Below are positions 10,003 through 15,806 of a DNA stretch of 15,806 nucleotides, one piece after another. The position numbers and the translations under genes were made by a program. How positions within the stretch are numbered: position 1 is the first letter of the stretch; each line of letters begins with the position of its first letter. The notes under the pieces are model-generated. The model searched no databases and was not told the DNA's origin. It worked only from the letters and a program-made list of their open reading frames with translations. The stretch comes from a virus (lineage: Duplodnaviria > Heunggongvirae > Uroviricota > Caudoviricetes): the IMG/VR virus record IMGVR_UViG_2623620496_000009; one strand, 5' to 3'.

Positions 10003-10078
10003 AGTGGCGAACCTCCTGATTGGATTAGGCTTCGCCCTATGTTGAAGTGATTGTGTCTGACAAGCAGCTAAGCGCAGT

Positions 10079-10096
10079 TGTACCGTTATTCACACA
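10079..10096 (-). promoter_or_regulatory. Candidate Ogr-type activator site (TGT-N12-ACA) of a PF-like late promoter
   Basis: TGTaccgttattcacACA lies in the 106-bp spacer between the tail fibre assembly gene and FI, centred about 85 bp upstream of the FI ATG. No convincing -10 hexamer was found by eye. Confidence 0.35.
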
Positions 10097-10108
10097 AAAT
10101 GACGGTAT

Positions 10109-10522
10109 TTATCTGCTTGCAGGGAAAACAGGCCAAATAATATCAGGTGCGGTGCTGGTATCTGTTGCCGTCACAGCCTCGATATAATCCAGCACAACGT
10201 TAAGTCGGGTAGTTTCCTCTTGCGTCAGTTTGCGCCCGGCCTGCAGCTTTAACTGAATCACGCTGATATTGACCATTGCTGCGTCTATCAACGACTGTTT
10301 TTTCTGTTCAGCGTCAGCTACCAGTTCATCATGAGAACGTTCCGGAGTGGGTGGTGCAGTAAATACCCCGTCTGAATACGCCCAGCCGATTCCGGGCTGC
10401 TCACTGATATCAGAAATATTAATGAGCTGCAGATTATCCGGCACAGTGAATTCATCCTCGCCATCCCAGACAATGACATTCACAACCATCCCATTTTCAA
10501 TAACTGCATATGACGCATTCAT
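10109..10522 (-). CDS. G: Tail fibre assembly protein (Caudovirales Tfa family), in the P2 G position
   Basis: 137-aa product from the ATG at 10520-10522, preceded by GAGGAG. The C-terminus ...DTSTAPDIIWPVFP is the characteristic Tfa ending. The start overlaps the H stop (TAATG). The six-frame ORF extends 8 codons further to a TTG. Confidence 0.85.
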   Translation of the reverse strand: MNASYAVIENGMVVNVIVWDGEDEFTVPDNLQLINISDISEQPGIGWAYSDGVFTAPPTPERSHDELVADAEQKKQSLIDAAMVNISVIQLKLQAGRKLTQEETTRLNVVLDYIEAVTATDTSTAPDIIWPVFPASR

Positions 10523-12441
10523 TATGCAAACTCCTCGATAATACAAACCCCATCAGCACCTTTCCCGCCCGTCATACTGGTTCCGCTATAACCTGCATCG
10601 TATGCACCACCTCCGCCTGAACCAAATGCCCTGCCTCTAACGCCACCGCCAGCGCCTGCGCGTCCACCGCCACCCCAGTACGATGTTCCGCCTTCACCGC
10701 TGACGCCGATATTTCCGGACTGACCGTCGCCTCCATCTCCACCAGTGATGCGGATATCGCCAGTACTCGGCACACCTCCGTTACCGCCGTTTGTGTTTGT
10801 AACACCCACTTTCCCGCCACCTTCGCCACCAGGAGCAATTAACGATGCGAATACGCTATTCCCGCCCCTGGTGCCGTTCGTTGCACTAACACCACCGGCC
10901 CCACCTGCGCCGATAGTGACTGGATAACTATTCTGTGTCGGGGTCATTATTGAAATTATTGTTCCACCGGCCCCACCGCCAGCACCGAAAAACGTTTCAT
11001 TATTGGATGTAGCCTTGCAGCCGCCCCCTCCGCCACCGCCGCCCGTTATTGTGACCCTGATCCGTTTTGTTTCTGGTGATGGGGTATACGTACCTGATGA
11101 CGCGAAAGCCCGGGTACTCAGCCGGCGTCCCACGTATCCGCTTGTATCTCCCAAACCAAGATAACGAATAACCTCCTGTTTGCTTGTTTTAGCCAGAATA
11201 TCCCGTCCAACATTAGTCAGGGTTGTCAGGCTGGCTGTATCATTCCCCGTAAAATACGGTAGTTTGTCTGCCGCAGTGGCAAGGCCTGCCAGTGCGGTCA
11301 GTGTGGCGTCGGCAGGTTGTTTTCCATTGGCAAGGTCATATACAGCCTTCACAGCTTTTGGTGTGGCAGCCTGCGTTTCTGACGTGCTGTTAGTGGCGCT
11401 GCTGAGTTGCACGGTACCTTTTACCGTCAGTGAAGCTGCAGGCACATCCGTTATCTGGCTCCACGGGTGCGTGTGACTGACAGGTGCCTTACCTGCTGCA
11501 AGGTCATATGCCGCCTTCACTGCCTTTGGTGTGGCAGCCTGCGTTTCTGACGTGCTGTTAGTGGCGCTGCTGAGTTGCACGGTGCCTTTTACCGTCAGTG
11601 AAGCTGCAGGCACATCCGTTATCTGATTCCACGGGTGTGTGTGACTGACAGGTGCCTTACCTGCTGCAAGGTCATATACAGCCTTCACTGCCTTTGGAGT
11701 GGCAGCCTGCGTTTCTGATGTGCTGTTAGTGGCGCTGCTGAGTTGCACGGTGCCTTTTACCGTCAGCGAGGCTGCAGGTACACCTGTTATCTGATTCCAC
11801 GGGTGTGTGTGACTGGCGGATGCTTTACCTGCTGCAAGATCATATGCAGCCTTCACAGCCTTCGGTGTTGCGGCCAGTATTTCGGATTCACTGTTGGTCG
11901 CACTGCTTAACTGAGTAAAACCTTTTGCGGTCAGCGAGGCGTCCGGGTGACGTCGTGACTGTTCGTGCTCTGATATTTTGTCATCCACATACTTGCGGGT
12001 TGCCAGCACTACAGCAGGGTCGATTTTCAGGATGATATTGTCCGTACTGCTGGTAATCAGCACCATGCGCACGGTCTGGGTACGCCCACTGCCTTCAGCC
12101 AGTTGCGGCTTATAGCTTTCCGGGCAGTTACCCACGGCAATCAATGCCCCGGACTCATCAAACAAGCCCACTTCACGTATCCACCAACCGCCCTCGTTTT
12201 CAGGGATCACCTGTTCAGCAATAATCTGGCTGCTGTTCTGCGGGTCGATATAAAGCATATTCAGCGCAGCCCGGCGTTTCTCATTTACCAGTGCCGTCTG
12301 CTTTGCGTCCGGCGTTGGCAATACTCCGCCGCCATCGCCCACCGCCATATGGGTAATTTTTAGCGGCACACCGAGCGCGGCGGCGCTGGCAAGTTTCGCC
12401 GCGCCAATATCCGTCAGCAGGGTATAAAATTTTGTGCTCAT
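10522..12441 (-). CDS. H: Tail fibre protein (P2 gpH-like N-terminus, Phage_fiber_2-type repeats, Gly-rich C-terminal domain)
   Basis: 639-aa ORF. The N-terminal ~165 aa resemble the P2 H baseplate-attachment region. It is followed by four tandem ~56-aa repeats (LSSATNSTSETQAATPKAVKA...HTHPWNQIT) and a glycine-rich C-terminal third. Confidence 0.9.
   Translation of the reverse strand: MSTKFYTLLTDIGAAKLASAAALGVPLKITHMAVGDGGGVLPTPDAKQTALVNEKRRAALNMLYIDPQNSSQIIAEQVIPENEGGWWIREVGLFDESGALIAVGNCPESYKPQLAEGSGRTQTVRMVLITSSTDNIILKIDPAVVLATRKYVDDKISEHEQSRRHPDASLTAKGFTQLSSATNSESEILAATPKAVKAAYDLAAGKASASHTHPWNQITGVPAASLTVKGTVQLSSATNSTSETQAATPKAVKAVYDLAAGKAPVSHTHPWNQITDVPAASLTVKGTVQLSSATNSTSETQAATPKAVKAAYDLAAGKAPVSHTHPWSQITDVPAASLTVKGTVQLSSATNSTSETQAATPKAVKAVYDLANGKQPADATLTALAGLATAADKLPYFTGNDTASLTTLTNVGRDILAKTSKQEVIRYLGLGDTSGYVGRRLSTRAFASSGTYTPSPETKRIRVTITGGGGGGGGCKATSNNETFFGAGGGAGGTIISIMTPTQNSYPVTIGAGGAGGVSATNGTRGGNSVFASLIAPGGEGGGKVGVTNTNGGNGGVPSTGDIRITGGDGGDGQSGNIGVSGEGGTSYWGGGGRAGAGGGVRGRAFGSGGGGAYDAGYSGTSMTGGKGADGVCIIEEFA
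11326..11940 (-). repeat. Tandem 168-bp in-frame coding repeats in the tail fibre gene (three full copies plus one partial)
   Basis: Near-identical DNA units, e.g. gccttcac[a/t]gc[t/c]tttgg[t/a]gtggcagcctgcgtttctga[c/t]gtgctgttagtggcgctgctgagttgcacggt, recurring about every 168 bp. Confidence 0.85.
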
Positions 12442-13944: not shown

Positions 13945-14290
13945 TCTCTGCTCCTGTTGATACTGAAAGGGACACAGGCACACCGTTATTCCGCCGCCCG
14001 GTCAGCTCCACCACCATTGAACCGTCAAAATTGCTGTTAATAGTGATGGAATCCAGCGTCAGCCGTGGCTCCCAGCGACTCAGTGCCACATACACAGCCG
14101 ACATAACCTGCAGGCGTAACGCCGGATTTTGTGGCTGATCTATCAGTGCCGACAGCAGGGAACCATATTCCCGACGGGCAATGCGGCTACCCTGCGGCGT
14201 CAGCAGAATGTCCCGCACCGACTGGCGCAGATGGTCAATATCAGTAATGGCTTTACCGTTGGTATTGTTCATCCCGCTATAAAGCGTCAT
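13931..14290 (-). CDS. W: Baseplate wedge protein W (GPW/gp25 family)
   Basis: 119-aa ORF, P2 gpW-like. Its ATG overlaps the V stop (ATGA). Confidence 0.85.
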   Translation of the reverse strand: MTLYSGMNNTNGKAITDIDHLRQSVRDILLTPQGSRIARREYGSLLSALIDQPQNPALRLQVMSAVYVALSRWEPRLTLDSITINSNFDGSMVVELTGRRNNGVPVSLSVSTGAENGSD

Positions 14291-14865
14291 ACCGGGCCTC
14301 CGGTTGTGTCGCCGCCTTTCAGGACGCCAGTATGCTGATGCGCATCAACCACGATCCCGTTAGAACTCATTGCTCCGCCACCCTGGGTAACGCCACCATT
14401 GATCACCACTTCGCTGTTAATGCGCGTGCGGTCAGCCTCCAGTACAAACTCACTGGTTTTCATGGTGATGTTGTCAGCGGCCTCAATGACCATTGATTTG
14501 ATGCCCCTGACATACCAGCGCCCGGTGGCGGGTTCATATTCAAACCAGCCACCGTCCGGGTATTCCGTCACGTTGCCGTCCTCAGAGCCTGAAGGTGGCG
14601 GAAACTGGTTTGAGTAGACCGCAGGCAGGGCAAACGCGGTTTCCAGATTGCCGCCAAGGCTGAACAGCACAACCTGCTCACCCACAGACGGTTTCCACCA
14701 GGTGCGCGATTTGCCCGCGCGCAGTGTCAGCCAGTTAATCCAGTTGGTTTCGAGGTCGCCAGTTTTCACCCGACACAGCCAGTTTGCCCTGTCCACTTCG
14801 GTGACTACACCTGTGCGGATCAGGTTGGTGATAAGGCGCATGATTTCGGTTAATTGTGCGTTCAT
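14287..14865 (-). CDS. V: Baseplate spike/hub assembly protein V
   Basis: 192-aa ORF, P2 gpV-like (MNAQLTEIMRLITNLIRTGVVTEVD...). It is the first gene of the V-W-J-I-H-G block. Confidence 0.9.
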   Translation of the reverse strand: MNAQLTEIMRLITNLIRTGVVTEVDRANWLCRVKTGDLETNWINWLTLRAGKSRTWWKPSVGEQVVLFSLGGNLETAFALPAVYSNQFPPPSGSEDGNVTEYPDGGWFEYEPATGRWYVRGIKSMVIEAADNITMKTSEFVLEADRTRINSEVVINGGVTQGGGAMSSNGIVVDAHQHTGVLKGGDTTGGPV

Positions 14866-15143: not shown

Positions 15144-15806
15144 ATGCCAAATGAAAATCTTGATATTGACTCAAGGACTACCGAGCAATTATACGAATGG
15201 TATTTGCAAGGAAATTTGATAGTCAATAGACGTTATCAAAGGAAACTTGTATGGTCTCTAGAAGAAAAGACTTCTTTAATATCTTCTATGCTGCAACAAT
15301 ATCCTATTCCGTTATTATTATTTGTTACCATCAATGAACAAAGAGAAATATTGGATGGAATGCAAAGATTAGAAGCAATTATGAGCTTCATCGAACAGAG
15401 ATTTTCATTAGATGGACAATATTTTGATTTGGACTCTATAGCTTTAACAAAACAACTTAAAGATAATGGAACTTTAATTCAGAAAGAACCAATCCTTTCC
15501 CGTGATTCTTCAGCAATTATTGCACGTTATCGATTTGCAATATCAGAATATAGCTCCACAAATGAAAATATTGACGAAGTATTCAGACGAATAAACTCAA
15601 ACGGGAAGATTTTATCCAAACAAGAATTACGTAGTGCAGGAACAGTTAGTAACTTCTCTGAACTGGTCAGATCGATATCAACATCGATCAGAGGTGATAC
15701 TAGCCATTCTGACATTATGAATCTCGGTAATGACTCCAACTTACTGATAGTGTTTTATGTTCAGATAATGCCCGATGACTTTGTCATGCAGCTCCACCGA
15801 TTTTGA
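15144..15806 (+). CDS. DUF262 / ParB-like nuclease-superfamily protein (GmrSD N-terminal-type domain), 220 aa
   Basis: ATG at 15144 with a strong RBS. Motifs read directly from the translation: YQRKLVW, QQYPIP, ILDGMQRL (DGQQR-like), and FRRINSNGKILSKQELRSA (the second DUF262 signature). The gene is AT-rich and divergent from the phage V operon. Its stop codon is the last three bases of the window. Confidence 0.7.
   Translation: MPNENLDIDSRTTEQLYEWYLQGNLIVNRRYQRKLVWSLEEKTSLISSMLQQYPIPLLLFVTINEQREILDGMQRLEAIMSFIEQRFSLDGQYFDLDSIALTKQLKDNGTLIQKEPILSRDSSAIIARYRFAISEYSSTNENIDEVFRRINSNGKILSKQELRSAGTVSNFSELVRSISTSIRGDTSHSDIMNLGNDSNLLIVFYVQIMPDDFVMQLHRF

Follow-up and report, generated by a model that had tools for sequence, protein, structure and literature searches.

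A P2-type prophage tail fibre carries a Pam3 gp24-like glycine-rich tip that is shared with other phage scaffolds as one cassette with its chaperone gene

A 15,806-nucleotide stretch of DNA (virus record IMGVR_UViG_2623620496_000009), referred to here as the window, contains the tail fibre gene H from a P2-like prophage together with the adjoining chaperone gene. The window contains Escherichia coli chromosomal DNA with the right-hand part of the prophage, which adjoins ybjL (935-2620), and is 100% identical to several complete genomes, e.g. NZ_CP031134. On the minus strand the genes are arranged in the order ogr, D, U, T, E/E', FII (tube), FI (sheath), a 137 amino acid chaperone of the Caudo_TAP family, H, I, J, W and V. 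The Pfam assignments of the neighbors of H (Tail_P2_I, Baseplate_J, sheath and tube) are P2-like, and H is located after gpI and before the chaperone gene, whose start codon overlaps the stop codon of H by one base. H thus combines an anchor of the P2 gpH-type with the position of the fibre gene in a P2-type tail operon. The encoded protein is identical to RefSeq WP_000104780.1, which is annotated as 'tail fiber protein', and at least 10 complete genomes of E. coli encode it with 100% identity. The features of both genes are listed in Table 1.

Table 1. Features of the tail fibre gene H and its chaperone gene (positions in the window).
Feature	Position	Strand	Basis
Tail fibre gene H of the P2-like prophage, 639 aa	10522..12441	-	Open reading frame and translation; Pfam Phage_tail_fib, Phage_fiber_2 (four matches), Gly_rich_2
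N-terminal baseplate-anchor domain, P2 gpH-like, residues 1-150	11992..12441	-	Pfam PF12571 Phage_tail_fib, E 8.7e-64
Shaft containing four Phage_fiber_2 repeats, residues ~160-376	11314..11964	-	Pfam PF03406, four stretches, E 7.5e-72
Final P2-like segment up to the conserved YLGL joint, residues 377-427	11161..11313	-	BLASTP and DNA comparison
Receptor-binding tip module (predicted), residues 428-639: TNF-like beta-sandwich and glycine-rich lattice	10525..11160	-	Pfam Gly_rich_2, residues 450-636
Eight consecutive Gly codons, residues 467-474	11020..11043	-	DNA and translation; conserved in relatives
Tail fibre assembly chaperone gene, Caudo_TAP, 137 aa	10109..10522	-	Pfam PF02413, E 1.2e-20, residues 27-134
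Exchanged cassette: tip module and nearly the whole chaperone gene	10131..11160		DNA identity

The anchor region of H is 96-98% identical at the nucleotide level to that of many P2-like phages and aligns with the N-terminus of P2 gpH. Together with the PF12571 match this confirmed the P2-like N-terminal anchor that had been recognized in the initial annotation of the sequence. As in P2 gpH, the anchor is followed by Phage_fiber_2 repeats, of which H has four and P2 two. At the DNA level, positions 11330-11875 (H residues ~190-370) form a tandem repeat with a period of 168 bp, 3.2 copies and 92% matches (Tandem Repeats Finder, TRF) that encodes units of 56 residues. Three of the shaft units carry the motif SHTHPW(N/S)QIT, which P2 gpH lacks, and the His-x-His within it recalls metal-binding HxH sites such as those of T4 fibre needles. 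When H was compared with P2 gpH by BLASTP, the two proteins aligned over H residues 1-432 with 54% identity up to the sequence YLGL, while the final 207 residues were without a counterpart. An end-to-end alignment with one known fibre had been named beforehand as the observation that would speak against an exchanged C-terminus; with P2 gpH, on which this was checked, a breakpoint was present. No homology to P2 gpH/gpG was detected by BLASTP for the C-terminal receptor-binding part and the chaperone, which agrees with the earlier proposal that the host-range determinant is unlike that of P2.

The breakpoint was located more precisely on the DNA. Similarity to P2 stops at 11188 and similarity to Mu-like-tail prophages starts at 11160, and in a three-way DNA alignment the switch falls at the shared sequence tat-ctY-ggt-tt, i.e. 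at YLGL. From there, the 1030 bp between 11160 and 10131 are 91% identical to four loci of Mu-like-tail prophages (L003-L006). In these prophages, which are e14/SfV-like, a fibre of 308 amino acids occupies the position of Mu gp49 behind gp45, gp46, gp47 and gp48; next come genes for a Caudo_TAP protein and an acyltransferase. The N-terminus of this fibre is termed StfP in RefSeq, as in e14. The tip of H is 81-96% identical to such 308 amino acid proteins, which are very common in E. coli, and the chaperone is 90% identical to its counterpart beside the StfP-type fibres. Unlike H, these fibres have a short, different anchor (MHRIDTKTAQ...) and no shaft repeats, and some are found within an invertible segment that carries a resolvase gene. 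Tip and chaperone therefore constitute a shared DNA cassette, and the horizontally exchanged receptor-binding module that had been postulated for H was borne out. Comparison with a P2-like phage of Klebsiella, in which the shared backbone reaches H residue ~155 and resumes from the C-terminal half of the chaperone, reveals further joints. In addition, StfP-type genes of two genomes (NZ_AP027971 and NZ_LR882493; H76/H77) match just the last 115 nt of H, with 99% identity, the remainder being too diverged for megablast, which suggests that recombination breakpoints exist both at the edges of the tip and within it. Such modular exchange of tail fibres was reportedly first described for P2, Mu, P1 and lambda in 1992 (Haggard-Ljungquist and colleagues).

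Of H residues 450-639, 33.7% are glycine, versus 6.5% of residues 1-449, and overlapping GGxGG motifs occur nine times in the C-terminal part and not once in the N-terminal part, in agreement with the glycine-rich, GGxGG-dominated C-terminus (10525-11046, residues 466-639) of the initial annotation. This domain had been taken to begin at the run of eight glycines. However, the Pfam match begins at residue 450, with the exchanged module reaching back to residue ~428 (window position 11160). The run therefore does not mark the domain boundary and is interpreted as an internal structural strand. The domain starts ~40 residues further upstream, so that the span first assigned to it lacks the first beta-strands. 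The match to PF21722 (Gly_rich_2) scored 54.3 bits versus a cut-off of 24.3 and aligned H residues 450-636 with positions 4-224 of the 226 in the profile. In the literature searched, no mention of PF21722 or Gly_rich_2 by name was found, and NCBIfam contained no model matching the tip domain or the chaperone.

With a single sequence, the match of the tip to the solved tail fibre gp24 of cyanophage Pam3 was weak (E 0.12). A family profile built from 34 homologues (39-68% identity) and searched against the PDB matched Pam3 gp24 over the whole domain (7yfw_a; entries 7yfw/7ypx; E 1.4e-10), with profile positions 5-198 corresponding to residues 86-276 of the chain. Pam3 gp24 consists of an N-terminal helix, a sandwich resembling tumour necrosis factor (TNF) and a glycine-rich domain, in which twelve extended glycine motifs form a four-layer lattice with GGGGxGG in the central loops; its sequence diversity rises toward the distal tip (PMC9608196). 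An AlphaFold2 model of H residues 428-639, calculated with an alignment of 42 sequences, reached a predicted local distance difference test score (pLDDT) of 92.4 and a predicted template-modelling score (pTM) of 0.87. The predicted monomer shows a TNF-like beta-sandwich that is extended into a lattice of glycine strands. All strong structural neighbors of the tip are binding modules, either of phage fibres or of receptor ectodomains. The latter include the ALK/LTK supradomain with its TNF-like plus glycine-rich parts (PDB 7LIR, 7NX3, 7LS0), which resembles the tip in fold only (identity ~20%) and differs in belonging to eukaryotic cytokine-binding receptors, in having a larger lattice and in lacking any fibre context. 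A weak match at the sequence level was obtained with the profile for gp33 ('tail wing brush') and gp29 of mycobacteriophage Bxb1 (PDB 9D93, E 0.34), a siphovirus with a mycobacterial host in which the proteins occupy another virion position.

The eight glycines (G8) at H residues 467-474, GGGGGGGG, are encoded by GGC GGC GGT GGC GGA GGG GGC GGC at 11020-11043, exactly at the position and with the codons first annotated. When the domain itself was shuffled 100,000 times, a run of at least eight glycines arose in 1.6% of the cases, and 116 out of the 120 close cluster representatives retain G8. This low frequency together with the conservation in relatives indicates that the run is a selected feature and not a product of chance. 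The four exceptions comprise two substitutions (GGGSGGGG and GCGGGGGG) and two shorter in-frame runs, namely a G6 allele present in three NCBI assemblies (P0074), in which the codons differ, and a G5 allele from one Logan assembly (P0070), in which 9 bp (GGA GGG GGC) are deleted between GGC codons. In homologues with 40-50% identity the segment retains its length of eight residues, filled with G, A or S. Consistent with central strands of the GGGGxGG kind, G8 and other glycine columns were invariant or nearly so in two homologue alignments. In the tip model the strand RIRVTIT (460-466) leads straight into G8, which itself is neither helix nor strand; it is followed by a conserved cysteine, the segment KATSNNETFF and a second glycine motif, GAGGGAGG.

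It had further been suggested that the GGN tract is a potential slippage site. As a contingency site, it would switch the fibre or alter the host range at high frequency by changes in tract length, and the two shorter in-frame runs among the 120 representatives are what such a site might leave behind. However, the repeat is imperfect: TRF described it as a 9-bp array of 2.7 copies with 80% matches and a score of 34, below the default threshold of 50, and its longest homopolymer is G5. The window and the Mu-like-tail prophages share every base of the tract despite 9% divergence elsewhere, half of the few exceptions to G8 are substitutions, the segment length is conserved in distant homologues as for a structural strand, and no frameshift variants at the tract were found. 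The split H of strain CRE10, the sole frameshifted copy encountered, which was considered as evidence of slippage, is caused by a 2-bp insertion at ~10807, elsewhere in the gene, and is probably a sequencing error because the sheath gene of that assembly is also frameshifted. The perfect repeat, frequent length variation and frameshifts that mark a simple-sequence contingency locus were thus not observed, and we regard slippage as a very improbable role for the tract. Occasional in-frame indels do occur at G8, but nothing indicates a switch, and its conservation together with the tract data points to a structural element under purifying selection. As a site of copy-number change, the near-perfect 168-bp repeat of the shaft is far more plausible than the G8 tract. 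A separate idea, to which we give slightly more weight but which we still consider improbable, is that the G8/G6/G5 length variants are non-neutral and re-register the neighboring distal loop CKATSNNETFF, which would retune receptor specificity. If true, such variants would provide the portable tip with a second, indel-based route to a new host range besides cassette exchange.

The initial annotation had placed a lambda-type Tfa chaperone gene directly downstream of H. The adjoining Caudo_TAP gene is indeed present, and its product matches PF02413, a family that we take to be annotated for P2 gpG as well as for lambda Tfa. The designation as lambda-type fits in part: similarity to lambda Tfa is confined to residues 68-134 (38% identity), i.e. 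to the C-terminal half, whereas the N-terminal half is peculiar to the cassette. BLASTP detected no similarity to P2 gpG, and a phmmer search of the PDB with the chaperone gave no match. A single-sequence AlphaFold2 model of poor quality (pLDDT 55.5) has strands in its N-terminal part and two long helices in its C-terminal part. In the chaperone of Pam3, gp25, an N-terminal beta-sandwich grips the tip and a C-terminal helical domain trimerises (PMC9608196).

To describe the distribution of the tip family, 1.84 billion cluster representatives were searched with phmmer, which yielded 3042 proteins at E<=1e-3, counted at 50% clustering, and 262 at E<=1e-10. Nearly all matches form the very C-terminal end of proteins that are 215-1405 amino acids long, and the scaffolds preceding them vary (Phage_tail_fib, Phage_fiber_2, Gp34_trimer, DUF968 or nothing recognizable). 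In a viral structure library, 270 matches at E<=0.001 were obtained in phages of proteobacteria, cyanobacteria and actinobacteria and in giant viruses. The glycine-rich tip is therefore a common domain. A profile-based protein database search again returned mostly near-identical E. coli proteins, and a distant member was used for a third search. Among 5426 complete E. coli genomes, the tip was detected by megablast in 290, including 77 places on plasmids; this is a lower bound, as copies below ~85% nucleotide identity are missed. One plasmid copy belongs to a fibre of 1060 amino acids beside a recombinase remnant, and this plasmid was read as a P1-like phage-plasmid. The whole P2-type arrangement of H and chaperone was found in just 65 genomes. 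In the jumbo phage Goslar, the tip (70% amino acid identity) sits on a 1324 amino acid fibre resembling P1 S, next to a chaperone, gp089, with 64% identity; Goslar is the sole phage record with the whole cassette, which it matches over the full length at 67% DNA identity. A tblastn search of the phage collection with the tip retrieved Goslar alone, over half of the query, and is uninformative on distribution, the glycine-rich part having been masked by the low-complexity filter. In one Mu-like-tail prophage locus (L013, 1501-3921), a glycine-rich fibre and its chaperone face an additional chaperone gene together with a Gp53-like_C tip fragment in opposite orientation, and a resolvase gene comes next. 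Invertible host-range segments of the Gin/Cin/Pin-type are arranged in this way, here with the glycine-rich tip as one alternative.

Taken together, we consider it very likely that H is a P2-type anchor and shaft carrying an exchangeable Pam3 gp24-like tip that moves with its own chaperone as one cassette. The P2-type baseplate anchor and the repeat shaft are followed, past the conserved YLGL joint, by an exchangeable tip of ~210 residues, predicted to fold as a TNF-like beta-sandwich whose strands run on into a lattice of glycine-only extended strands. On the basis of the alignment to gp24 and of the model around it, G8 is read as the first, and one of the central, lattice strands, located in the first loop. 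Glycine would be needed in these strands because packing by main-chain hydrogen bonds leaves no room for side chains, and this packing demand could explain why the length of G8 is conserved. By analogy to Pam3 gp24 and its homologues in Klebsiella phages, the surface that contacts the receptor would be formed by variable polar residues between paired glycine strands and by exposed strands of the sandwich. Close relatives vary mainly at residues 478, 495-503, 522-532, 540, 545, 562-569 and 579, i.e. between the glycine motifs and in the sandwich strands, and the C-terminal position of the family in fibre proteins was noted alongside the monomer model of the tip. The downstream chaperone would assist folding and trimerisation of the tip; its N-terminal half, which travels with the tip, is presumably tip-specific, and its C-terminal half would represent the generic Tfa part. 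Recombination at conserved joints would allow tip and chaperone to move among phage lineages as a single unit.

Several points weigh against this interpretation. The assignment of the tip fold is based on a predicted monomer model. A two-domain architecture of the chaperone is only suggested, since the model of this protein is poor. The distal placing of the variable positions was deduced from strand order, with approximately half of them in loop tips and half in sandwich strands. Furthermore, no close copy of the tip (>80% nucleotide identity) was found in the isolated phages of the phage collection.

As receptor, lipopolysaccharide (LPS) appears the likeliest candidate by analogy, with an outer-membrane protein ranked second. 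The Klebsiella phage protein TFP_Y, a gp24 homologue, binds LPS and inhibits the DNA ejection that LPS triggers; its glycine-rich domain is where the host-range mutations T169I and S209G are located (PMC12671077). In phage MMNM, mutations selected on a semi-permissive host map to the gp24-like tail fibre MMNM_27 (PMC11633184). A 2026 preprint classed 'pam3-like adhesins' as outer-membrane-protein binders, by inference only. An alternative origin of the tip would be fusion of a T-even gp38-type adhesin, such as the polyglycine sandwich of Salmonella phage S16 gp38, to the fibre. S16 gp38 is the best-known 'glycine-rich tip' but was absent among the matches of the tip, and we consider such a fusion extremely unlikely. 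As a candidate class, the Straboviridae gp38 adhesin was rejected, as the structural similarity to PDB 6F45 and the separately encoded monomeric adhesin that define it were not found. That the tip is an enzyme acting on a surface sugar rather than a plain binder is the least probable of all: many of the 308 amino acid homologues are named 'carbohydrate kinase' in NCBI records, and for one homologue the authors left open whether LPS is hydrolysed or merely bound (PMC12671077), but neither Pfam nor NCBIfam indicates a kinase or any other enzyme family, the strong structural neighbors are all binding modules, glycine accounts for nearly every invariant position and conserved residues of a catalytic type are absent, and newer records read 'glycine-rich domain-containing protein'. 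The label 'carbohydrate kinase' is attached to hundreds of E. coli records of 308 amino acid fibres (e.g. P0096 and P0029); it is unsupported by Pfam, NCBIfam and the predicted structure and appears to be a propagated misannotation.

Two further regions of the prophage were noted. Between the chaperone and sheath genes lie ~106 bp (10003-10108); in P2 this hotspot is occupied by the cargo gene fun(Z), whereas no fun(Z)-like cargo gene is present here. Past gpV (14287-14865), the region 15144-15806 contains a plus-strand gene with a DUF262 domain (~15144-15641), truncated in RefSeq, and an IS1 element that starts at ~15701 and extends past the end of the window. This looks like a cargo gene in the P2 variable region that was disrupted by insertion, possibly a defence gene.

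Compared with known systems, H resembles P2 gpH in gene position (after gpI and before the sheath gene), in its Phage_tail_fib and Phage_fiber_2 domains and in the segment up to YLGL, but not in the last 207 residues and the chaperone, which are unrelated to those of P2. Pam3 gp24 (PDB 7YFW, 7YPX) is a minimal fibre of 280 amino acids with an N-terminal helix bundle alone (PMC9608196), whereas here the tip is carried by a P2-type anchor and repeat shaft of 427 residues. The host and, presumably, the receptor also differ from those of Pam3, and no PDB chain gave a detectable match to the sequence of the chaperone, which is a Caudo_TAP protein. The interpretation offered in the initial annotation was thus partly supported: exchange was recognized correctly, while the domain boundary, the 'lambda-type' label and the role ascribed to slippage need correction. 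The tip is an ordinary member of a known, structurally characterized family, and tail fibre mosaicism is likewise established, so that no concept is changed. The analysis corrects a widespread misannotation of the tip domain in E. coli genomes and pinpoints the part of the prophage that would decide adsorption, namely a Pam3 gp24-like tip, unrelated to that of P2, with a matched chaperone. As this cassette has clean boundaries, at the YLGL joint of H and near the middle of the chaperone gene, and is in use on at least four scaffolds (P2-like, Mu-like-tail, P1-like and Goslar), it may be a practical building block with which P2-based phages or tailocins could be retargeted.

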